Made by a program: the position numbers and the translations under genes. This document shows positions 7,750 through 63,720 of a stretch of 64,000 bases of DNA, in pieces. The DNA is from Lama guanicoe. Taxonomy: Eukaryota. A model generated the notes under the pieces. The model ran no database searches, was not told the origin of the DNA, and saw nothing but the letters and a program-made list of their open reading frames with translations. Location of the stretch: assembly GCA_013239625.1 (NCBI GenBank), contig MU053559.1, positions 3,722,607 through 3,786,606 on the forward strand, read 5' to 3'. Position 1 is the stretch's first letter. Every line of letters begins with the position of its first letter.

Positions 7750-9580
7750 ACAGAGTTCTCTTGGTTTCTTAAAGCCCCAGCAAAGGGTTGTCTAGGCAGA
7801 ACAGGCTCATGATGTCCTTAAGGCTCATCTGGTCATCACCAAATGATGTTCTAAGAATCTAAATCTAAGATGTTGAGAACATTTTGCAAAAATGTCTGGA
7901 AGTTTCACTGTGAGGGCAGAAGGGTGAAGGCTGAGCGCCTGCCTGTCCCTGCGGACACTGTAAACAGTTCCCTTGAGCAGCCCTCTAAGACCACGAGTGC
8001 TTGGCCCTACTGCGATCTGCTACACTCACCATGGAAATGGGTCCTGCTTGATCTAACATCAGGCCTTAATACAGTGCATTTTGTAAGAACCAAGGGGAAT
8101 ATTTTTAGCCTGTTGTAGAAGATTCTTTGAATGGTTAGAAATACATGTAGGCCGACTGAGGCACAGCCGACATTTGACAATTAGGTACCTCACTCACATT
8201 CCTCCAGAAAACCTGCATCAACAGCCACATAGTGATTTTTGAACTTTAATAACAGGTTATTATTCAAATGGCACCACCAAAGTTCTTTATAAAAATATTC
8301 CCATAGTAATTTAGACCTTAATTCATGATCTGTCCTTCCTCCTGAAACTGGGATCATTTAATCATTTGACCTGTCTTCCAAGAGTCATTCTGAATTTTAG
8401 TATAGTGGAAAGATCATGAACTATTTCCATCTTGTTCACTGTCCACTCCTTCATGTCTAATATTTGTTGAACTAAACAATTAAAGGATAAATCTAAGTTC
8501 TTTATAAAAATATTGTGATAAAGGTTGAGATTCATAATCTGAACTGTGCCCTCCAAAAGGTCATGTGGAGTTTGCCTACAAGTATCTTGGCTCCTCTGAA
8601 TGAGAGATATAAATATAAAATATGAGTCAAGATATCTTGAAAAGTAAAACAGAGGTTAAAAGGAGTAATGTGGGATTTCTAAGTGTAAAGACACTTAAAA
8701 ATGCAACTGCCTTGCATTTGCTAAAGTTAAGGGTCAAATGGACAATAGCTCTTGGGACCACAGGAACAACTTGGGGACTTCCGGAGATCTCCCAAGAAGA
8801 ATAATTCACTTTGTGGACAAAGATTCTACACCTCATACTATGAAACATGAAACAGAGGGTAAATTAGAAGTAAACTGCTCCTAATTAAGCCTCATCCCAT
8901 CAAGGTATACCATTACTAGAAAAGAGATACCCATTATCTTTTGATAAGGGAAAACCTTGAAACAAAGAATCTCAGAGTCTGGAAATTCAGGGAATTAAGG
9001 ATTCTGGCTTCATCACTAGTTTGCTGTGTGTCCAACCAATGAGCCAAATGAGTTCATTCATCAGTAATGGAGGTGGTATAGAAGCTGGGCAAACGCTAAT
9101 GGGCAGCAGAAATTTAGAAGCCAAAGTGTAGAATTTACTACTGAAAAAGTGACAATCACTTGAATTAGAAAAAAGAAGTCACTTCCATTCTATAATGGTT
9201 AACATAAAATAATAACTCTGAGACACAGAACAGGACCAAAAAAAGTCTCACACCTGGAACAGAGATGATTTTAAGTACAATAATTTTACAAGTACTAGAA
9301 TTTTTTGGAAATTAGTTGATTTTAGTAATTTAGCTCCTCCTACATAGTCTAATTTTATGTACCTCCAACAGGAAGGAACTGAATTCTCCACACCCAATTC
9401 ATTTAAAATGAAACATTCTTTAGCTGTGAACTTACTTTCAGGAATGACAAAAGTAAAGGAGAAATTTGGTTTTCAGCAAAGTTTTTTGTGATCATTTCAA
9501 AAATTCATGTTGCAAATTCACTTATGTTGCAAAATACAGAAGCAATTACTAAGATACTGTATTGGGTGAGGGTGAAATCA

Positions 9581-9805
<225 letters not shown>

Positions 9806-10479
9806 TCACAGCACATTATCTTTTTAAAACATAATTTCGTATGGTTAGAAAGCATTTCTATTGCTTTTGGGGAAAAAAAAACACTCATGGACTCAATTTC
9901 GGAAGGAATGCACATTTTAACTCTTGGGGAAAATAAACGTTTCCTTTGCTTTTAGGAAATGATGAGTTAGCTCCAAACATGCTAATCCCAGTGCAGTCTA
10001 AAGGGTAAATATACTTGTCAGGTATATTAAGGATATTGTTTTCATTTATTTGAACAAACTTCCTCTCCTTTCCACCTCCACTGCTCCCATCCTGGTCCAG
10101 GCCACCACTGTCCCTTACTCAGGTTAAAACAATGGTGGCTGCTCCTGGTCATCCCTACCTCTCATATTGACTATATCCCCTTATGATCCTTCTCTACGTT
10201 ACAATCAAGTAAGTCTTTTAACAGTGCAAAATGAAAAAAAACCCCCAAACACTCTGCTTAAAATCCTTCAATGGTGTTTATGGCAAAAGGCAAAAATTCT
10301 GAATACAGCCAATATATCTTGCACCATCAGACTCGCAACAAATTCTCCAAGCTCCCATTGCATCACTTCCTCATGGCATCTTTATGGATCAGGCATACTG
10401 TCCACTCTTTGCTAAAATATGCCAATCTCCCCATCTCAGAGTCTTCATAAGCTGTTCCCTGTTCTCCATACTAGAAAAA

Positions 10480-13400
10480 AAAGATATTTCCCACCCACAC
10501 TATCCTTCACATCCTCTAACATTATTTGTGGCTAATTACTGGAAGATATCATGCCTCAACTATTCATCCTTCCATGGAAACAGCCTAAATGTCCATCAAC
10601 AGATGATTGGATAAAGAAGCTGTGGTATATTTATACAATGGAATACTACTCAGCCATAAAAACCAACAACATAACGCCATTTGCAGCAACATGGATGCTC
10701 CTGGAGAATGTTATTCTAAGTAAGCCAGAAAGAGAAAGAAAAATACCATATGAGATCACTCATATGTGGAATCTTAAAAAAAACACAAACAAAGCATAAA
10801 TACAAAACAGAAATAGACTCATAGACATAGAATACAAACTTGTGGTTGCCAAGGAGGTGGAGGGTGGGAAGGGATAGACTGGGATTTCAAAATTGTAGAA
10901 TAGATAAACAAGATTATACTGCATAGCACAGGGAAATATATATAAGATCTTATGGTAGCTCACAGAGAAAAAAAATGTGACAATGAATATATATATGTTC
11001 ATGTATAACTGAAAAATTGTGCTCTACACTGGAATTCCACACAACATTGTAAAATGATTATAAATCAATAAAAATGTTAAAAAAAAAAGTAAAAAGAAAA
11101 AACTATTCATCCTTCCAGTCTGTCCCCATCCACTGTAACTCATTCTTGAAAGAAACCACTCCCCACATCCTCCCCCTTCATCCTTTCCCCCCATCTACTG
11201 TGGCTCATTACTGGAACGTATCACCGTCCTCACCAACCATATCTCCTATCTCCTCCATACACTATGGCTCATTCCTGAAAGATACCATTCACCAAATCAT
11301 CCATCCTTCCTGTCTCCCCTGACTCCAACACTGCGGCTCATTCCTGTAAGATACCAACCAATCCCATACCATCCATTGGTCCTGTTTTATACAATTCATT
11401 GCGATTCACTCCTGGGACATATATCCTCCCCCTATTCACATGTCTGATCTCCACTCATCCACTGTCCTCATTTGTGGAAGATATATCATCCCTCAATACC
11501 ATCCATCAGTCCTGTATCTCCCATCAACTGGCTCATTCCTTTAAGATACCATCCACTCTTCCTGTCTCTCCCAACAACCAGTTCATCCTTGGATGATAAC
11601 AATCGCCCCCCAATCCCTCCTGTGGCTTATTCCTTCAAGATACCACCCCCCAAATCACTCATCTATCCCATGCATACAGCCCATCAGATGTGGCTCATTT
11701 CTTCATGATACCTTGCACCCACATCATTCACCCTACCTGTCTCCTCTCACAATCACTGTAGTTCATTCCTGATGATACCACCCCTTCACACCATCCATTC
11801 TTCCTGTAATTCCCCCACTCCAAGCACTATGGTTCCTTCCTGGAAGATATCATCACACCAATGGCTTCCTGTCTCCTCCTAACCACAGTATCTCATCCTG
11901 GAAGCTACCATTCCCTCACTGTATACTGCTATACCCCCATCACTGTGGCTCATTCCTGGAAGATACCACCCACCCCTTCCTGTCTCCCCTACCCACTGTG
12001 GCTAATTCCTGGAAGATACCATATCCTCACACCATCCACTATTTCTGTCTCTCCCAACAAGTGGCTCATCCTCAGAAGATATCATCTTAACATACAATCA
12101 ACCCTTCATCTCCCCACTTTTTACTATGGTTCATTCCTGGGCCACACCATCTCCTCACATCATCACTCTTCCTGTCTCCCCTACATACTATGGCTCATTC
12201 CTGGCACATACCATTCCCTCACATCATCCATCCTTTCTGTCTTCCCCATTCCTAGAAAATATCATCCCACCATAACACTCATCCTTCCTGTTTCCCCCAT
12301 CCACCGTGGCTTATTCCTGGAGGATGTGGTGAGGGGTATCTTCCAGGAATGAGCCACAGTGATGGGGAGGAGACAAGATAGGTGGAAAGATAGAAGATGT
12401 TGGAGGATGGTATGTAGTGCATGGGGGTGGGGGAGGTGGGGAGACAGGAAGAGTATGAGGAAACGGTATCATCCAGGAATAAGCTACAGTGACTGTGAGG
12501 GGAGATAAGCAGGGTGGAAGATACTCATTTGGCTTTATTCCTGGGAGATATCATTCCTTATTATATTTACTATTTCTATATCCCCCATCAACTGCAGTAT
12601 TCCTGCTAGATACCACCTCCTGCCACAGTTCATTTTTCTGCTTTCCCCCATCCACAATGGTTCATACCTGGAAGATACCATATTCCCACAACATCCATTT
12701 TCCCCTATCTACCACCATCCACTGTGACTCATTCCTGGAAGATGGCATCTCATATCATCCATCACTCCTGTCTGGAAAATACCATGCCCCTACATCATCC
12801 ACCCTTCCTCTCCACCCCCTCCCCAGTCACTATGGCTCATTCCTGGATGATACCATTCCCTTACAGCATCCACTCTTCCTGTCTTTCCCATTCACAATGG
12901 CTCATATGTGGAAGACACCGTATTCCCACACCATCCATCCTTTTTGTCTCCTCCCCATCGACTATGGCTAACTCCTGGAACCTACTCTCCTCCCATACCA
13001 TCCATCTTCCTGTCTCCCACATCCACAGTGGGACATTCCTGGTAAATACCATCCTCCCACAACATCCATCCTTCCTGTCACCTACCATCCACTATGGTTT
13101 AATCCTGAAATATACCATCTCCTCACACCATTTACTCTTCTTGCATCCCCTGATCTACTGTGGTTCATTGCTTAAGGATACCATCCCACCACACATATCC
13201 TGTCTCCCCCAGGGCACTGTGGTTCATTCCAGGTAGATACCAATCCAGGAAAACATCCATCCTCACTGTCTCCCCCTACACACTGTGGTTCATCCCTGGA
13301 AGATATCATCCTCCCACACCATCCATTTTCCCATACACCACCATCCACTACGGCTTATTCATGGAAGATAATATCTCTCACACCATGCATCATTCCTGTC

Positions 13401-14920
13401 TCCCCCAAACACTTGTCTATTCCTAGAAGATACCTTGCACCCACATCATCCACCTTTCCTGTCTCCCCCTATAGTCTCTGTAGCTCATTCCTAGAAGATA
13501 TCCTCCTCTCAAACCATCCATCTTTCCTGTTGGCCCCTCCCTACAAGTCACTCTCCTTTATTGCTAGAAGATTCCATTCAAACTTCTAGTCTGCTCCCAA
13601 AACTGACTCATTACTGGAAGATAACATCCCTTCACACCACCCATCCTTGCTGTCTGCCCCTATTAACTGCATCTCATTCCAGGAACATAAATCCCCCTAC
13701 ATCATCCATCATTCCTATTTCCCCCATCCACTGTGGCTCATTCCTGGAATATACCATTTCTGCACACCAGGCACCCTATCTCTCCCACCCCATCGACTCT
13801 GTCTGACTCTGGAACAACTATCTATCTTTCCTGTCTCCCTCATCCACAGTGGCTGGTTCCTGGTAGATACCATACACTCTTCATGTCCCCCATCATCAGC
13901 TATGAGTTAACCCTTGAACATACCACCCCCCACACCATACACCTTTCATGTCTCCCCCATGCACTGTGGCTCATTCTTGGAAGATATCATCCCTTCACAA
14001 CTTCCACCCTCTCCTTCATCTACTATGGCCCATACCTAAAACATAACATCATGATCCATCCTTCCTGTCTCTCTTTTGTACTGTGACTCTTTCCTGGAAG
14101 ATATCATTCCATCATTACCATTCCCCATCTATCCCCATCCATTGTGGCTCATTCCTGGAAGATACCACCCCCTCATACCATACTCATCCTGTTTCCCCAT
14201 CAACTGACTTACTCTTGGAAGATACCATCTCTTCACATCATCCACTCTTCTTGTCTTCTCCATCAACTGACTCATTCTTAGAAGATAACTTACACACATA
14301 CCATCCCTCTTTCCTCTCTCTCCCCATCCACTGTGGCTCACTCCCCATCATTTCACTACATTACTCTTATATCCTCCATCAACTGGCACATTTCTTAAAG
14401 ATACTATCCCCACATCACACATCCTCCCCACCTCCCCTCATCCACTGTGGCTTATCCTGGAAGACCACCACATCACCCATGCTTCCTGTCTCTACCTGTG
14501 CACTATGGCTCATTCCTGGCACATACTATCCTCCCACACCATCACCTTTCCTGTTTCCCCTGTCAATAGTGGCTCATTCCAGGAAGATACCATTCGGCTA
14601 CACCATCCACTATTCCTGTCCCCCACATACATATGGTTTACTCCTGAACATACCAACCCCACACACCTGATCCATGGTTTATGGCTCACTCCTGGAAGTT
14701 ACCATCCCACCACACCATATATCCTTTGTGTCCCCTCTCGTGCACTGTAGCTCATTCCTGGAAAATACCATCTCGCCTATCCACCTTCCTGACTCCTCAT
14801 CCACTGTGGCTAATTCCTGAAGATACCATCACCTCACACCATCCAATCTTCCTTCCTCCCCCATCAAATGGCTCATTCCTGGCAGATACCATCTACACAC
14901 CCCACCCATCTTTCTTGCAA
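10480..14920. repeat. Degenerate minisatellite, unit ~60-65 bp, in MAOA intron 5
   Basis: Dozens of diverged copies of ccatccactgtggctcattcctggaagataccatcccctcacaccatccatccttcctgtctccc. Interrupted by an L1 and by an inverted block at about 12325-12516. Confidence 0.92.
10575..11100 (+). mobile_element. 5'-truncated young L1 (end of ORF2 plus 3' UTR) inside the minisatellite
   Basis: WKQPKCPSTDDWIKKLWYIYTMEYYSAIK is the L1 ORF2 C-terminus. Poly(A) tail; exact 17-bp TSD aactattcatccttcca at 10558 and 11101. Confidence 0.93.
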
Positions 14921-44435: not shown

Positions 44436-46215
44436 AAAATGCAGCATCAGATTCAGCAGGTCTGGGACAGGGCCTGAGATTCTGCATTTCTATCAAGCTC
44501 CAGGGTGATTCTGAGGCTGCTGGCCCACTGGACACTTAGAGCTGAGCAAAGTGACAACAGGCCTATGATACAACCCTGTATTAACTAAAAAGGCAGGAAG
44601 TGAATGACAGAAGGGGAGCCTGGTTTGGTGTGACTGAAAGAGCAGGTGCAATATCCTAGTTCAGATGTTGCTGGATGGCTACTTCGTATCCATTTGTATT
44701 CCCTTTCCCATGCCTGCTTCTTTTATGCCGCCTGGAGATGTTAAATACTTGCTTTCTCAGGCTCCCAAGGAGCCAAGGGTAGCTATGTGCCCCAATTCTG
44801 GCCAAGGAGACTAAAGCAAATGTCTGCTGGGGTCTTCTGGTAAAGGAAAAGCTTTGTTGCAGGTAAGACTTGGGCCGCCTCTTCACGCTCTTTCCTGCCA
44901 TGAATGAGGACTTGATGCTGAGGGATGCTGCAACCATCTGGTTACCACTAGGCAATAAGCCAACAGGCAAAGAATGGTGGAGCAGAGAGACAGAAAGAGC
45001 CTAAAGCCTTGATGACAAAGCTGAATCCTTGCACCAACTTAAACTACTTCCCCCAGGCTGCTTCTTATGTAAAATAATTAAGTGTTTGTACTGCTTAAGC
45101 CATTGTTATTGTCACCGAATAAGGCATTCTGTTCTAAGTCTGATGCATCTCCTAATTAGCCAGATGCTTCCTCTCCCTCCAGTCACTTCAACAGTCTGGT
45201 TTTGTCCTTACTGCCAATCCCCAGCCTCTGACACTCTATTTGTGTGCTCCAGCAAAGGGTCTCATTAGTGACCTTCTAACTGCCAAACACAAGGGCCTCT
45301 TCTCAGCCTTCATCCTGTTAGATGTCCCTGGCATTTGATTTTATTTAGACTCCCTTCCTCTCCTCTGCTGATTTTCATGTCACTGCTCTAATCTGGTCTT
45401 CTTCCTCTGCCTCCACTGCTTCTCTCTGGCTCCTCTGCCTCTGCCTGCCCCTCCCCCTAAATTTGCATGTTCCCCAAACTTCCATCTTTGTCCCTATTTC
45501 CTTCCCACCCTACATCTCCCTATGTACTCTCATCAGTTCCCACAGATTCAACAACCTGCACCCATTTCTTTAAGTAGCAGTAAAGTACTAGTTAGCCTGT
45601 ATTTTTCCAGAATGGTGATGTAAGCCTTAGTATGAAAAGGCAGTGATGGAGCAAGAACTGGGCTTCCTTCTCATGTCTCATTGACCTTATGTGAGCAAAG
45701 AGGCTCTCTGGCAGCAGCACACCTCTTAGGGAACAAGGAATAAGGAAAAAGTTACCCAGAAATATGTTACATTTGCTTCTGCTTACTGTAGTCACACTTC
45801 TTTTAAGTTGTGTATCCTTGGATAAATAAACAACGAATGTGTACTAAGCATGTATGAATTAAATGTGTGTGTGTGTTGTGAGTATATAGTCACTTAAAGT
45901 CCAGCCAAACTATAATCCCAACTGAGACACTACGTACTCTTATTTAGGTCTTTAGTATGGAAATTATGACACCGTGTTGCAGTTATCTGTTCATGTTTTT
46001 TTCCTTCATTAGAATGTAAGCTACTGAAGGTCAGAGGCTGTCACTCTTTGGTGGGTGTTTGTTGAAAAGAATAGCCATTTAATGCAGGAGTTTAGGGCTA
46101 TGGGGGACAAATGGCTTAACTACATGAACTCTTGAGATTCCCTCTAGCTCTGTGACCTCCAATGACCCCACTTCTAGTTCATGAGATTTTATACGCAAGT
46201 ATTAAAATTATTTAC

Positions 46216-46310
46216 CCTCACTGTATATGTTCTTCCTCCAACTCTGTCCCGAGCTTCTAAAACCAAAACATTAACTCCATGTTCATTTAAGAGTTTGGCA
46301 GCAGACAATC
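46216..46310 (-). CDS. MAOA: MAOA exon 2 ([31 protein letters not shown])
   Basis: Hand translation; 95 nt; acceptor TTTTAG, donor GTAAAT. Not in the ORF track. Confidence 0.97.
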
Positions 46311-47410
46311 CTAAAAGGAAAAAATAGGAGAACAAAATCGAGGAACATATTAATATCTAAATGTGAAACAGCCACGATTTAACCAAAGCCTGCATATAAT
46401 ATAAATGCAGGGCATCATACACAATTCATTGATTTTGCTGTCTATCTAGTAAATTCTGACCACACTGTGATTCACTGAGCCACCAATTGTATAGTCTATC
46501 GTATATTACATTGTCTATCATAATTTTATTTTCTATCATAAGGTTGGCTGAAAAAAAAGTGATAATTATTAAAATATAGATTTTTGGTTTACTGATAATC
46601 AAATCATATTTAAGAGAATTTGTTGAACACCTAATCAGTCCTTATTATGCCCGTCTTCAAGAAATCCTGATTGTATGAACAGAAGTATGTTTTCTTGGAA
46701 TCTTCTCCCAGCTACTTCAGCTCCCAGTATACCTGTCCTTTTCTTAATTTAAACCCCTCGCCATCATAATTGCCTATTATTTATATCTGGATTACATGCT
46801 TGCTTGATCTTGTTTTCCCCACTAGATTCAAAGTTATCAAAGGCAAGAACCATGTTTCATACTTTATTTATTGGCTCATAGCTGAGTACAGGCTTTCACC
46901 CATGAATAAAAACTTTCATAAAAGTTAAACCCAGCTTAGTAACACCAGAAAGTAGAGGAAAATGTTGTGGATTAACATTATATCAAGGGTGCATGCTGTC
47001 AGCATGACTTATCACTGATGTTAATCTTGATCACCTGGTAGAGGTAGTCTTTGGCAGGTCTCTCCACCGAAAAGTTACTCTTTTCTTCCCCCTTCCATGC
47101 TACACTCTTTGGAAGGAAGTCTGTGCACAGCCTGCACTTAAAGAGTAGGGAGTTATGTCCTACTTCCCTGAGGGTGGAGGATCGACATAAATTATTTGAA
47201 ATTCTTCTGCCCAGATTTGTCTCTTCTCTCCCATTAATTTTTTTAGTCAATCATTTATTTATATTTTATGGACACATAGATAGTTGTTTTATACTTCGGA
47301 TTATAATCCAATACCATGTTATTCATTCTGTTGTTTGAATTATTACACCTTTGGTCAATGGAAGCTCTTTCAGTTGGCTTCCATGTCCCTTTGACATGCT
47401 TTCATCATTT

Positions 47411-58139: not shown

Positions 58140-59230
58140 AAGAAACAGAGACAGAAGATAAGTTCAAATTGTCAGATATAGATTATAAGCTCTACAGGAG
58201 AGAAAAATCAAGCAGAGCCAGAATGATCAAGGAGAACAGATTTAATCAGGTATTGAAGAAAGGATAGGCTGGAAATGTTCAGAGAAGCACTTCCGTGTTA
58301 AGGAAAAAACTAAAACAGGGAAGGAATAGAGGGACAAAATAAACATGGTGTAGCACTGAGGACAAGAGAGCAGTGTGACTACAGCCATGTTGGGGATGGT
58401 AGGAAATGCTGCTTGTCCAACAAAGGGGATGCTAGATAAGTGGGGTGTGGAGAGGGGAGCTTAAGAAGCGGACAATAAATCATTGAACGTCCTGAACAGA
58501 ACAAGGTGATAAAAGAAGTGTTTAAAAAAATCAAATCTGGGAGAACACTGCAGGATGGACATGAAGGGAGAGCCCAAAGTGAAGGGTGGCCACTGGGAAG
58601 ATGGTCATAACCTGGTGAGCTGAAGGGGCTAAGAGTCTGTCCTGGGGATGGGGGAAGAGTTACTGGGAAAGAAAGAGAGGAACAGCCCAAAGAAGGAGTT
58701 AGAAGGATCTGCTGACTGGGTGTAGAAGATAAAACAAAAGGATGTGTCCAAAATGATGGAAAGGATGGTGGTGCCAAGAACAGAGTCAATGAAATGAGGA
58801 AGAGAAGCTGGGTTGGAGGGCAAGGAGGCTTTTGGACTTGTTGAATATGAAGTAAGAACAAGACTTTCAAGCGTGAAATATGCAAGAGCAGATAAGCTAT
58901 AGGACAGGAGTCCAGAGAAAGTGAAGGACTCAAACTAGAGATTTGAGAGCTCTCTGTAGATGAGGAAAAGTTGACATCTTGGAAGAAGAGAGGGAGAGAG
59001 TGCATATGAGCCCCAAAGTGATGAAGAGCTGAACCTCGAGGCCTTTTCAAAACTAGAAGAATGGGCACAAGAATATGGGCACAATGACAGGAACAGAAAA
59101 AGGAGCAATTGGTGTGGGATAAAAATTCAGGATCCAATAGGGTCGCAGGAAGCATGAAAGAAGTTTCAAAAAGGACTTGATGACAGATGATGGATGATGG
59201 ATAAGAGCCACAGCATGTTGAAGATACCAC
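58140..59230. mobile_element. L2 LINE remnant
   Basis: Purine-rich, decayed L2-like sequence; accounts for the spurious 283-aa minus-strand ORF. Confidence 0.55.
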
Positions 59231-61900
59231 TGTACTACTTACAAATGAGTAGGGCTTTTTCCTTTCTCAACTACCGAGTGTCTAAGATTATTTAATTGGT
59301 GAGTGGGCAGAAAAAGGGATTTTGTGGCTGAAATACATGCTCTGTTTTATGATTTTTAATTAAGATGTTGCTATTCTTTGTGCAGACAGAGATAGTTATA
59401 AAACGTTACTTTGGATTGCTTTTGAGGAACATTTAGTCAGAATTTGTAGTCTTCTGGGAGCTATTTTGTTATACAATAGGAATAATCCTGCATATACTAA
59501 GTATTGGCCATATATTTTAAGTATGTGGGTATCATATTAAAATGTGCAAGTCCTGACAAAAGTTATAAGAAATATCCAGAAGCGTTTAAAACTGATATAG
59601 GGGCTATTAAGTAACTCATGGGATACTGCTAAGCACACACAAAGATGATGTGTTTCTAAGTTCTCAAGAACCCTTAGGAAGTAATACCTCTCACCTGCTC
59701 ATGAAACGCCAGTCTGTGTGCTGGGTTTATCCTGAGCCAGACTTGCATCTACTTTTATTTTAGTTGTGAACCATCTGGCAAGACATCACAGCCAGAAAGC
59801 AAGGTTTCTGGTCAGTTTTGGTGTTCAGATCAAATCTGACTGATAAGAAATGATATTAAAGGAAGCCCAGTGTCTTCCACTGTCACTGATGAAATGGAAG
59901 CTGGGTTCTGGAATAGAAGTGTGAACTACCGTGCAAGAAATGCCCTCTTCTTCCCCCAAATGGAAATGAACAAATTAGTCATTGGTAGTGACCATAGAAA
60001 GATTCAGGTTGAGGAGCCTGAAGCTTATATAATTGGGGTGCCCTCTCTAGGAAAAAAAAGAAGGCAAAATTTCAAAGACAAGATTCAGTATGAAACTGGT
60101 TATTTAGAATGAGAACCCAGAAAGACCTGCAGTTGTAAGGTCATAAAGCATAAGCATCATCAGCTACACTGTAAATCCAGCTCTGCTCACGACCAACTAC
60201 TTGGAGTAAAGTGTAGAAAAGGAGAAAAAGAGCCAATAATCAGGCAGAGGGAAAAATGAAAGACAAAATGCCCCTTAAGGAATACTGGAGCACAGAACAA
60301 AAAAAGACAAGAATAAAAATCCCAGAAAGAACCCTGAATTGTGAAATATGGCTGGTATGGAGGTGGGAATGGAGACAGAACTCCCAATCAATTTACACGT
60401 CATCACCATATTTATTTTCCCATGATCAATAATCATGTTGCTTCTAGGAGGCTTAAACAGGTTTTTAGAAACACCAGTCCACTTTATTGCAAGCACTTAA
60501 CAAGTGTTTGTTGACTGAATGAATCAAAGTTAACCAATGAATGAAGAGGAAACAAGGGAGACACTTCTTTTTTCGTACTCTCCACCAGGATCTGCTTTCC
60601 TGATGCTCCAAAATACATGCATGTTTTTGCTGGCACTGGCTAGAGTTGTCAAAGCAACAGCTCATGCCAATCTCTTCTCTGGTGACTAAGACTGTTATCC
60701 TAAACAGGCCAAGTTAAAAGCTATCTCCACTCAAAATTAATTTGTAAGCAGTTTCTCAAAAGGATTGTACATAAAAATGGCTACTTTGGGACACCCTATT
60801 TACTCCCTCCCACCTTATTTCTCCCTCTTACTAAATCAGATCCTTCAGGTTTATTTCAGAAATTAACCTCCTCCCATGTCTTGGACAGATTAGTGTGGGA
60901 CTCTAGCTAGAGCTGAAACACAATCCCTAAATTTCAAACATTTTACCAATGATGACAACATAAGTAACAATTTAATATATCAGTCAGTATGAGATTTCCA
61001 GGAAGATTCAGAAAAACCTCATGCACCACTCAGTTGGTCAGCTACAAACTCAAACCAGGACCAGGGGAACCCAGGATTGCCAGCTGCTCATCACAGGACA
61101 AGATTCAGGCCCTTGGGGAAGGACACAAACATACCATTCCTCTGCCCCTGCTTCTCACAGAGGGATTCCATTTGAGCAACAAATGCCCTGCACTTTCCTG
61201 CAAGTTCTTAAAAAAGAAAAAAAAACCAAAAACGGCTAGAGTAGGTTAAAACTAAGAGCTCTCTCCTCCCCGCCTATTTTAAAAACCTTTTCCTAAATGA
61301 TTCTTCCTCCTTCCTGTTCAGTTACTAAATTTTCTAAGGAAAAGCGCTTTAAGAAGAGCAGGACCTGAAAAACACGATTACTACCTCAATATTACAAAAA
61401 TCCATATACTGTTGTTCTGTTTAGGGCAAAGGATGTGAAACCAAGTGAGGCAAACCAGCCACCTTGGGAATTAGGAGTGAGGGTCTTAAATGGGAGAAAA
61501 TCACTGTCACTTCCCGGCCAGGCGGTCTGACCTCTGGATTGTTACCTCAGTTTCTTGGTTTTGTAAAACAGTGACAAATATACTGCCCGCCTCACGGGAC
61601 CGCTGAGGACTGAGAAAATCCACGTAAAGTGCTAAATATAACCGTACGGCAAGAGCTCCTTAAATGTTAGTATTTAATAGTAGGAGTAAAATGATTGTTC
61701 CTGCCTCCTGCAGTTCACACCACCAGCAAAACCCGCTCAACCCCACTCTCTCCTCGCGGGATCAGGGGCCCGACCGCTGTTGCGCTCTGTCATGCACAAG
61801 GGAGACCCCCCCCCAAAACGCCACCTAGCTAGTGCAAGTCCCTCCCCCGCCCCCCGGGCCGGCCAGGGTCCCTCAGGCTACCGCTACCGTCCACACTGAC

Positions 61901-61973
61901 CTGAGATGCCGCCTCCTATCACGACTACGTCGAACACTTGGCCCGCGTTGTCAGCCTTGTCCTGATTCTCCAT
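61901..61973 (-). CDS. MAOA: MAOA exon 1, canonical coding part (MENQDKADNAGQVFDVVVIGGGISG; FAD-binding GxGxxG)
   Basis: ATG at 61973 in strong Kozak context (AGC ATG G). 73 coding nt end at the donor CAG|GTCAGT. Matches the MAO-A N-terminus. Confidence 0.97.
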
Positions 61974-63197
61974 GCTCTGGTTGAGACTCTCCCGGGGCGT
62001 GGGTACAGGAGTGGGGCTGGCCAAGGGCGGAGCGGACTTTTCTACCGACTCTCGGGGGGAGTCCGAGGGCGGAGCCGATTCTTCCACCGATACCCGGGCG
62101 GAGCCGGGCGCTGAGGGCGGAGCGGACCCTTGGACTGGTACTCTGGGGGAACCCGGGGGTGGAGCCGATCCTTCTACCGATGTTCGGGGACTACCTAACT
62201 CAGAGAGTTCGGTGGACAGTTGAGTCGACACTGGGGAGTTCATGGGCGTACGAGGTCCCTGTATCAAACTCCAGGGGCTCCTGAGCACTCGGGGCGGGGG
62301 AGGGCCTTGTATCGACGCTTGGGAGGAGTCCGACAGGACGACAGATTCTTGTCCTGAACTCCCAGGGAGGCTGAGGTCTGAGGGCGGGTAGGACCCTTGT
62401 ATCGACTCTAGGGAGGAGTCCAAGAGCCGGGGGAAGTCGGGTATTGAGAACTGGCTGGACTCTTGTACTGGCAGTCGCGGGGGGTTGTTGAGGGTAGGAG
62501 GTACTTCTACCGAACTCTGGGAGGAGATGGATAGTGAGGACGGGACGAGCCCAAGTAGTGACATTTGCGGAATATTACGGGATAGAGGAGGTGACATTAT
62601 TCTGATGGAGTCAGGCATCGAGGGCGAGATGGATTCTTGTACCGCCGCTCTGAGGAACTTTCTGGGTATAGGAGTCCCTGCTACCCGGGGGAACCCAGGT
62701 ACTGAGGATGGGCCGGACTCATGGAGGGGCAACCTGGAGGAGCCTGAGGGCGAGACAGATCCCTGTTCGGATACCCGGGGGATGCTGGTGTCCGGGTTAG
62801 AGGCTGGGACGGCCCCCTCAGAGTTGGGAGAACGGGTGACAGACATGGGGATCTGGTCGCTAAGGCGGAGGGCGCCAAAGTCCCAGAGGCCAACCTTGGT
62901 GTTCGGGTCAGTTGTCAGGTCAAAATCCGTGCTTATTTGGGCGGACGCGCTGGCGCTTTGGGAGTATGTCACGTCTGGTGTGGACTCGTTCGACAGGGAG
63001 CTGGAAAACAGTCCGGAGACGGTCCGCCACTCAGATTGCATGCTCCACTCGGGAGTGGAGGGCAAGGCCGTGCCCAAGGTGGAGGCCGGGTCCGGGATCT
63101 GGGCAGTGGTGTCCCCGGCTCTGGGTGGACGCTCGGCCTCGTGCCGTCTCTCGCCGCTGTTGTTGCTGGGGGAGGCCTCTGAGTTGTGGGCGCTCAT
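61974..63197 (-). CDS. Putative 408-aa Ser/Pro-rich N-terminal extension, in frame with MAOA exon 1
   Basis: ORF 63197->61884 has no stop. ATG 63197 is 1224 nt (408 codons) upstream of the canonical ATG. An in-frame TGA at 63249-63251 closes the frame upstream. Translation is not demonstrated. Confidence 0.5.
62020..62170 (-). promoter_or_regulatory. Proximal MAOA core promoter: tandem GC boxes (Sp1/KLF) in a 42/48-bp (90-bp) repeat
   Basis: GGGCGGAGC at 62025, 62067, 62096 and 62115; GGGTGGAGC at 62157. The human MAOA core promoter is known to have two 90-bp Sp1-site repeats. Confidence 0.8.
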
Positions 63198-63199
63198 TG

Positions 63200-63720
63200 T
63201 TCCGGAGTGCGCGCGGGCGGCGGTGCTGGGGGCAACTTTCAGCTCTCCTCAGGCCCTCCCTCTCACAGGCGCTCGCCTCTCCCGCCCAAGCTGTTCCCGA
63301 TCCGCCCTCTCGGAGACCTGCCTCGGGAGCCCCGCCCACTTTGAGGGGGCGACGCGGCGCTGAAGCGGCCTGGCCCCGCCCTTCCCGCCTGTACGCGGCG
63401 CGCGCGCGCGTTGGGGGCGCACTCCCGCCCGGTAAGGCCGGACGACGCCACCGAAGTGGGGGTGTGGCTGGATGAAGGTGTGGGCGGGGACACGTGGGGG
63501 TTTCAACCTGGTGCTTTTATTCTTACACTTTAACTAAAATAGGACTGGGCGGAGGGCGTCGGGGGTGGGTTTAGGGAAGCCGGTACTGAAGAAAGCGGAC
63601 CCGGACCGCGAACTCGCAAGGCGCCCCCCCTCACACACCTGGTCTGGCCCCTTTGTGACGTCACAAGGGGCCGGTGAGGTCTGCGCAGTCGCGCGCCCTC
63701 CTTGTGGGGGGAGGGGTGAA
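63200..63720 (-). promoter_or_regulatory. Distal CpG-island promoter-like region
   Basis: Dense CpG with several GC boxes, a (CG)n run near 63398-63410, an E-box CACGTG at 63491 and a full CRE TGACGTCA at 63656-63663. Confidence 0.7.

Follow-up and report, generated by a model that had tools for sequence, protein, structure and literature searches.

Does the DNA immediately upstream of monoamine oxidase A (MAOA) exon 1 serve only as a promoter, or is it at the same time the first coding exon of a longer enzyme? The question is raised by a window of 64,000 nucleotides (nt) from the guanaco, Lama guanicoe (assembly GCA_013239625.1, contig MU053559.1, positions 3,722,607 to 3,786,606 of the forward strand), which carries MAOA on its minus strand. 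In behavioural genetics and pharmacology, few genes have received more study than MAOA, whose upstream region has always been read as a promoter. In this window, the region also forms an open reading frame (ORF) of 408 codons (1224 nt), which runs without a stop from an ATG at position 63197, in the context ACAATGA with A at −3, to the canonical MAOA start codon (MENQDKADNAGQVFDVVVIGGGIS) and continues in phase through exon 1 to the donor of intron 1 (Table 1). This layout, including an in-frame TGA that bounds the frame 17 codons above the ATG, had been described in an earlier note on this DNA and was recovered when the minus strand was analyzed anew; the span from stop to stop is 454 codons. 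The encoded peptide is rich in Ser (21.3%) and Pro (15.4%), as the earlier note had stated, and contains 11 SP and 6 TP motifs, but the abundance of SPR motifs was overstated in that note, with just three SP[RK] present. The gene is assigned to MAO-A, a flavin amine oxidase of the Pfam PF01593 family, on the basis of the VVVIGGGIS motif at the end of exon 1 and a series of exons on one strand, of which exons 2–9 show 89–100% identity to the Camelus model by tblastn, except for 76.7% at the exon-5 position. From the sequence comparisons described below, it seems probable, with some reserve, that transcripts from a distal promoter are translated through the upstream frame, giving a long MAO-A whose arm is disordered.

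Base composition does not account for the frame. When the upstream 1275 nt were shuffled 5000 times with dinucleotides preserved, every shuffle contained a stop, and the longest open frame among the six frames of positions 61701–63700, at 454 codons, exceeds both the mean (191) and the maximum (390) of 2000 shuffles. In the two remaining sense frames of this DNA there are 17 stops in 449 codons and 12 stops in 448 codons, spread over the full length, and the longest open runs are 77 and 124 codons. From this stop density, the chance of 425 open codons was put at approximately 1e-6, which agrees with the previous rough estimate of order 1e-5 or less. A gene on the plus strand was considered as a source of the conservation and rejected; the plus frames hold 11, 16, and 3 stops. 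Two antisense open frames of 278 amino acids (aa; 62527–63363) and 169 aa (62966–63475) overlap the extension ORF on the plus strand, and both are taken as a composition effect of the CpG island in which the ORF lies; a Pfam search with the 278-aa frame returned zero families.

Preservation of the frame in other mammals, which the earlier note had proposed as a check, was found in several sets of sequences. A search restricted to the extension and to proteins longer than 756 aa gave 18 matches, all of which are MAOA models of 806–1126 aa with a homologous N-terminal arm and precomputed Pfam amine-oxidase domains. In this search, identities over the extension are 93% in Camelus (100% coverage), 58% in pig, 55% in baleen and toothed whales, and 43–46% in carnivores, and the remaining carriers are hippo, fox, panda, elephant seal, cats (one entry being named “mucin-19-like”), meerkat, two bats, desman, mole, mouse lemur, and marmoset. 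Reindeer, a tamarin ORF, ground squirrel, Rousettus, and two assembled public-run contig products were added by the “near” length class. With a muroid-like ORF as the query, rodent carriers were found in rat (G3V9Z3, 874 aa, and A0A8I6AT92, 892 aa), Apodemus, Peromyscus, Onychomys, Microtus, Dipodomys, Thomomys, and Perognathus, the frame being kept in six rodent models. Mouse, Afrotheria, Xenarthra, and marsupials are absent from the matches of these searches. Model lengths are constant within clades (1007 aa in six canid entries, 922 aa in four delphinids, and 935 aa in alpaca and Camelus), and such identity of length in whole clades argues against chance survival selected by annotation. In a tabulated set of 41 hand-picked sequences, one or a few per genus, which were aligned to three parts of the alpaca extension (the N part, residues 1–135; the middle; and the C part), 28 have all three parts in one frame; five orders are represented in the tabulation, and the rodent models add to them. 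The start codon is likewise conserved in a usable context (A at −3): the homologous Met begins the models of camelids, pig, whales, canids, panda, felids, meerkat, Rousettus, lemur, and callitrichids, and orthologous models start with MSAHNS, MSAPYS, MSSHSS, MSAYNS, or MNTNYS. The non-repetitive N-terminal 135 codons are also in phase, with a shared start and shared motifs.

These comparisons point to a pattern in which frame and phase are conserved and most residues are free to change. Identity to the window over the extension is 0.93 in Camelus, 0.60–0.64 in pig, whales, and hippo, 0.39–0.55 in carnivores, 0.45–0.48 in bats and moles, and 0.40 in marmoset; over the catalytic 527 residues it is 0.87–0.99 (0.87–0.93 in other orders). 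In a neutral simulation, random substitutions were introduced into the window's 1224 nt up to the observed amino-acid identity, at a transition:transversion ratio of 2:1 and either with CpG changes boosted five-fold or without such a boost. At the observed divergence, 6.4–12 in-frame stops are expected, and the simulated frame stayed open in 3 of 3000 runs at an identity of 0.62 and in one of 3000 each at 0.60 and 0.55; at 0.52 and lower, none of 3000 remained open. Because the neutral simulation leaves so few runs open, the frame itself looks selected. Annotation ascertainment, by which open frames alone come into view, cannot rescue neutrality, because the frame is open in most of the sampled families and throughout whole clades. 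Of random single-base changes in the ORF, 30% are silent, 67% missense, and 2.8% nonsense, which corresponds to a nonsense/missense ratio of 0.041. Frequent stops or frameshifts in close relatives, which would have spoken against a coding role, are not seen between alpaca and Camelus, whose 408 codons differ by 29 replacements (each attainable with a single base change) with no stop and no indel, and by nothing over the last 72 codons. Islands of conservation within the extension are the start, S55-E56-x-x-T59 (SEWRT), W105 (GLWGF), and repeated S-A-P-P units; in a 13-sequence alignment, S55, E56, and T59 are invariant and W105 nearly so, and the most conserved extension columns are A359–S362 and S374–P377.

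A kept frame with free residues is also the pattern that would arise if the frame were translated and its openness were all that mattered: in distal-promoter transcripts, an open, in-phase frame would keep the first AUG from starting a long upstream ORF, by which the translation of MAOA would be blocked and the mRNA exposed to decay, and the arm itself would be functionless and maybe quickly degraded. Such an explanation would suit the position of ATG 63197 as the first AUG, the PEST-like composition of the extension (9 of 14 K/R/H-bounded segments score above 5 in an approximate re-implementation, which is a hint only), and the fact that catarrhine-type sequences tolerate loss of the frame and ruminants loss of the N part. 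The motifs that are kept across orders hint at more than openness, although DNA-level constraint could also explain them. An explanation by openness alone is considered improbable.

Turning to how the frame could be transcribed, the 100-nt bins from 63697 down to 61798 have GC contents of 0.51–0.76 and CpG observed/expected ratios of 0.53–1.22, and the bins 5′ of 63698 have GC contents of 0.28–0.46 and 0–2 CpG. Judged by sequence, the island has the makeup of a TATA-less, Sp1-type CpG-island promoter, with two clusters of GC boxes and no TATAAA within the island. The five GGGCGG boxes of the distal cluster lie 90–233 nt 5′ of ATG 63197. A near-palindrome (63648–63670) centred on TGACGTCA stands at the upstream edge of the island, and a 16-nt unit present in 1.9 copies (CAGGCCCTCCCTCTCA, plus strand, 63250–63281) overlaps the TGA that bounds the ORF. 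No sense-strand ATG occurs between 63921 and 63198 (724 nt), compared with 19 in 64661–63922 (740 nt); a transcript from anywhere in the distal half of the island would therefore meet ATG 63197 first.

The ORF overlaps the proximal promoter and its repeats as well. Among the degenerate direct repeats, the 75-nt family (six copies) has spacings of 90, 177, 90, 66, and 258 nt, four of the five being said to be multiples of three, and the 26-nt family has spacings of 42, 48, and 42 nt, all multiples of three. Tandem Repeats Finder detected no array inside the ORF, and the copies do not form the head-to-tail units of a minisatellite or a variable number tandem repeat (VNTR). A “90-bp repeat” organisation of the MAOA promoter was reportedly described by Zhu and Shih in 1992–94. 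The repeats of MAOA are called non-coding VNTRs in the accessible portion of a paper (PMC12776774). The core promoter of human MAOA is described with four Sp1/KLF sites in the accessible portion of a review (PMC5671571), to which four CCGCCC boxes correspond here. The 90-nt repeat spacings and the TATA-less CpG island are further points of agreement with the MAOA promoter. The boxes of the window sit inside the conserved frame, where they are read as S-A-P-P, whereas the MAOA promoter literature, as far as its accessible text goes, treats such boxes as non-coding.

Several observations weigh against a translated arm, and many of them would be explained if the segment were promoter and 5′ leader only, its openness being a by-product of C-rich, Ser/Pro-like composition, of repeats in multiples of three, and of longest-ORF annotation, with no long protein made. 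Extension residues diverge approximately six times faster than the catalytic body, a rate that is judged to be near neutral in view of typical enzyme constraint, and the alpaca–Camelus replacements are not significantly conservative (mean BLOSUM62 −0.24, null −0.64 ± 0.29, P = 0.095). Conservation within the extension is highest where it overlies the core-promoter GC boxes, and constraint on the DNA could therefore account for it there. Degenerate repeats spaced by 42, 48, and 90 nt and lineage-specific duplications of ~30-aa units in the canid, panda, and seal models are also in keeping with a leader. Furthermore, human and primate-type entries contain non-homologous frames that are open for ~150–200 codons, and intron 1 holds a stop-free frame of 295 codons (58382–59266, minus strand), Ser/Leu/Pro/Phe-rich and on a pyrimidine-rich strand, which has no Pfam family and no tandem repeat and looks compositional; long open frames can thus arise here by composition, and length by itself is weak evidence. 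The N part is missing from 12 of the 41 tabulated sequences (hippo, sheep, reindeer, yak, a Bos-like contig, hyena (Crocuta), Pteropus, Talpa, two sciurids, a muroid-like ORF, which shows weak similarity only, and a human entry), and one more, the primate-type ORF P0117, has the N part only. Because of this absence, and because a frameshift separates the old frame from MAOA in the human entry, the extension appears dispensable in some lineages.

The models themselves call for similar caution. Among the cluster members read, wherever the full extension is joined to the catalytic body the source is genome annotation, which tends to choose the longest ORF, and every long model is automated. In these members, the assembled public-run contig products with a catalytic body extend no further than 93 residues 5′ of the canonical Met (P0095, 620 aa; P0023, 617 aa), and none is a spliced contig with the full extension; the ORF-only contigs (rat-, Peromyscus-, and Microtus-type clusters) run on into intron 1, like genomic DNA. 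Public sequencing runs containing part of 61901–63260 numbered 19 rows: five unlabelled rows of “organism B” share 0.97 of the sampled words, and fourteen (thirteen labelled “organism A” and one a metagenome; four of them recorded as RNA) share exactly 0.45 each. A Camelus-like relative spanning the whole segment could share at most 0.56 of its 31-mers, which fits either interpretation of the 0.45, and no inference is drawn from that share. The extension ORF matches no Pfam family, and AlphaFold2, run with the 13-sequence alignment, predicts no fold, with a mean predicted local distance difference test (pLDDT) score of 36.7 and 395 of 432 residues below 50. Low pLDDT fits intrinsic disorder, which had been suspected from the sequence, or a segment that is not protein. 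MAO-A is known as a ~60 kDa protein. Nevertheless, a role as promoter and leader alone would leave unexplained why a frame that survives in at most 3 of 3000 simulated runs is found open in 28 of the 41 sequences tabulated from five orders and, beyond these, in rodents, why the non-repetitive N-terminal codons remain in phase with a conserved start and motifs, why the other two sense frames of the same DNA carry 12–17 stops, and why lengths are constant in canids, delphinids, and camelids. Such a role is regarded as rather unlikely, while still deserving serious consideration.

The human locus also bears on the distal start. A second start site of human MAOA lies ~1.3 kb upstream and accounts for 5–8% of the mRNA in HAP1 cells, according to the accessible portion of the report (Manca et al. 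2018, PMC5874270), in which the distal-start transcript (Ensembl isoform 204, cDNA AK293926) has the upstream VNTR (uVNTR) inside a ~1.3-kb “5′ UTR” (untranslated region) and includes an additional, stop-containing exon. Nowhere in PMC5874270 does the term “open reading frame” occur. In the guanaco window, ATG 63197 lies 1224 nt 5′ of the canonical ATG, to be compared with the ~1.3 kb of the human site; the human distal-start region is treated as untranslated in the portion of the report referred to, and the human entry seems to have undergone a shift of the conserved frame. A (TG)n repeat occupies codons ~12–35 in the models of marmoset and tamarin (P0019 and P0022), directly after the conserved start. 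P0117 has three copies of TGTGTSTRTS at the uVNTR-type site, matches tamarin residues 39–239 in frame, and then passes into a non-homologous frame. In the human entry EAW59382.1 (“MAOA isoform CRA_b, partial”, 386 aa; P0120), the MAOA frame is open for 361 codons upstream, homology to tamarin begins only from approximately residue 250 (clearly from 307), and the repeat appears as RHRHQYPHQY, the translation of the TGTGTSTRTS 30-nt unit in a frame shifted by two bases. From these alignments we infer that catarrhine-type sequences carry a frameshift in the stretch corresponding to tamarin residues ~240 to ~306, by which the old N part has lost its coupling to MAOA. The primate uVNTR-type repeat sits inside the conserved ORF, directly 3′ of its start.

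The human entry could also be taken as a sign of a separate short protein, consisting of the extension and exon 1 and made from unspliced or alternatively spliced transcripts in the manner of the human exon IIA isoform. EAW59382.1 and several ORF-only products stop a few residues into intron 1, the extra exon of isoform 204 contains a stop, and older annotations made the upstream part a gene of its own (“TPRXL” in Rhinolophus sinicus and “WIPF1-like” in Pteropus). Genomic DNA, however, also reads into the intron, so that ORF-only entries say nothing on RNA, and the phase with the MAOA start is conserved, which a stand-alone product would not need. A separate short protein is considered very improbable.

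As a database model, the long form already exists. The 432 residues that the window encodes agree without exception with the N-terminus of XP_006213459.2, the current automated RefSeq coding sequence of alpaca (Vicugna pacos) MAOA, whose 935 aa match the ~935-aa product that had been predicted from the window, and models of this kind exist in dozens of other mammals. The remark in the earlier note that the isoform was not known to be characterised is thus upheld for descriptions in print, within the reach of the searches made, and has to be amended for databases. No description or test of a long MAO-A was found in the titles and abstracts of the open full-text literature, subscription journals being outside the coverage, and the rat proteomics texts and supplements that list G3V9Z3 gave protein-level rows only, with zero peptides. 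The conservation pattern of the frame is striking. XP_006213459.2 and the orthologous automated models (Camelus XP_010966353.1, rat G3V9Z3 and A0A8I6AT92, and pig A0A8D0SNI5) share the architecture of extension plus 527-aa enzyme with the window and are computational predictions, of which rat G3V9Z3 is cited in proteomics at the protein level only. Longer annotation versions supersede shorter ones in cluster listings, as in Rhinolophus sinicus, where a newer annotation grew from 573 to 813 aa and took in the part previously named “TPRXL”. Names given by pipelines to the upstream ORF include “mucin-19-like” (Prionailurus and Panthera onca), “putative protein TPRXL” (Rhinolophus sinicus), and “WAS/WASL-interacting protein family member 1-like” (Pteropus). 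In the pig UniProt entry A0A480TPN3 (P0030, 832 aa), the extension and MAOA body are joined to a different C-terminal tail, which looks MAOB-like, and the entry is probably a chimeric model.

As far as sequence searches reach, the arm belongs to the MAOA locus alone, because a scan of 1.84 billion representatives, performed without a word index, gave seven matches with no unrelated repeat family among them (six judged by sequence and P0121 by its contig). P0020 is a partial MAOA model, P0116, P0118, P0119, and P0120 terminate in the MAOA exon-1 motif, P0117 consists of the N part only, and P0121 is an upstream-only Pteropus prediction, judged from its contig, which equals in length the contig of the MAOA model of that species. 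A metagenome scan with a four-species alignment matched 158 patterns, no relative being among them. In the guanaco's own genome (2.05 Gb), the one match is the locus itself, with no paralogue or retrocopy, and there is therefore no processed copy that could serve as a fossil of a long mRNA. A search of Rfam returned just a sub-threshold mir-276 hit (19.8 bits against a gathering score of 62), which is taken as chance.

Based on these results, a probable route to a long MAO-A can be proposed, in which MAOA would have a long first coding exon with the segment as its 5′ portion. A distal promoter driven by GC boxes (~63290–63700) could produce transcripts with ATG 63197 as the first AUG, from which 408 disordered, Ser/Pro-rich, PEST-like codons would be translated before the canonical Met and the FAD-binding fold, to give a 935-aa MAO-A. 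The proximal GC-box core promoter, embedded in the same DNA, would give the ordinary 527-aa form, so that two promoters may yield two proteoforms from one locus. Selection would be directed mainly at the open, in-phase frame and at some short motifs, namely the start, SEWRT, GLWGF, and the “SAPP” units of the GC boxes, leaving most residues free. The suggestion of the earlier note that a distal-promoter transcript could give a ~935-aa isoform gains from the reality of the frame, its conservation across orders, the conserved first ATG, the predicted disorder, and the human distal start as described in the accessible portion of PMC5874270; the long protein itself we infer, as we do the use of the distal start in this species, its translation, and the stability and function of the arm. 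By analogy, N-terminally extended proteoforms that arise from upstream in-frame starts or alternative promoters, such as PTEN-L, follow the logic proposed here, a known enzyme gaining a disordered arm through an in-frame start further 5′. The putative MAO-A arm, known from sequence, differs from that of PTEN-L in being much longer (408 aa), starting at AUG, and overlapping its own core promoter.

Table 1. Coordinates of MAOA-related features in the guanaco window (numbered from the first letter of the window)
Feature	Position	Strand	Basis or remark
Extension ORF, 408 codons, Ser/Pro-rich, in frame with MAOA	61974..63197	−	frame analysis; equals residues 1–408 of XP_006213459.2
Stop-to-stop span of the frame, 454 codons	61884..63248	−	frame analysis
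Upstream start codon, ACAATGA	63195..63197	−	first sense ATG in 724 nt; homologous Met begins orthologous models
Bounding in-frame TGA	63249..63251	−	17 codons 5′ of ATG
Canonical MAOA exon-1 coding part (MENQDK...VVVIGGGIS), FAD-binding GxGxxG motif	61901..61973	−	translation, tblastn; canonical ATG begins at 61973
Intron 1 GT donor	61899..61900	−	tblastn match of Camelus model (P0002) stops here
MAOA exon 2, limits approximate	46201..46311	−	tblastn of Camelus model; intron 1 ~15.6 kb
Further MAOA exons	36586–36443, 16886–16779, 15267–15139, 9763–9617, 6711–6562, 6272–6114, 5264–5151	−	tblastn, Camelus model
CpG island, ~1.9 kb, spanning both GC-box clusters, extension ORF, and exon 1	61800..63700		100-nt bins
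Cyclic AMP response element (CRE)-type octamer TGACGTCA, candidate distal-promoter element	63656..63663	−	motif match only; putative function
Five GGGCGG boxes, sense, candidate distal TATA-less promoter	63282..63430	−	starts 63430, 63381, 63337, 63307, 63287
Four CCGCCC (GC/Sp1-type) boxes, proximal core promoter inside ORF	62025..62120	−	57–147 nt 5′ of canonical ATG; read as S-A-P-P
Degenerate direct repeats: 75-nt family (6 copies) and 26-nt family	62024..62779		60–85% similarity

Elsewhere in the window, four intronic open frames of 180–208 codons lie on the plus strand, opposite MAOA (9407–9955, 11810–12352, 12610–13236, and 14047–14670), and none of them matches a Pfam family.

In a wider reading, to which we give an even chance, the classical MAOA “promoter”, including the site of the behaviour-associated primate uVNTR, would be the first coding exon of an ancestral MAO-A of ~800–1150 aa, open in most boreoeutherians (for example, rat, pig, dog, cat, camelids, whales, bats, lemur, and New World monkeys) and uncoupled by a frameshift in catarrhines including humans, and the human 30-bp uVNTR would be the relic of an in-frame coding repeat with units of 10 residues. 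If the long protein were never made, dozens of RefSeq, Ensembl, and UniProt entries would hold ~400 spurious residues, some of them under names such as “mucin-19-like”. If the ancestral-exon reading is true, ordinary laboratory and farm animals would make an MAO-A with a regulatory arm of 350–600 residues that is absent in humans, and promoter-reporter and polymorphism work in pig, dog, cat, cattle, and rodents would also alter a protein. The regulation of MAO-A would gain a large phosphorylatable and possibly degron-rich domain, and rat and human would differ in their proteoforms, a difference relevant to drug and behaviour models. The locus would then be a clear case of one stretch of DNA acting as core promoter and coding sequence.

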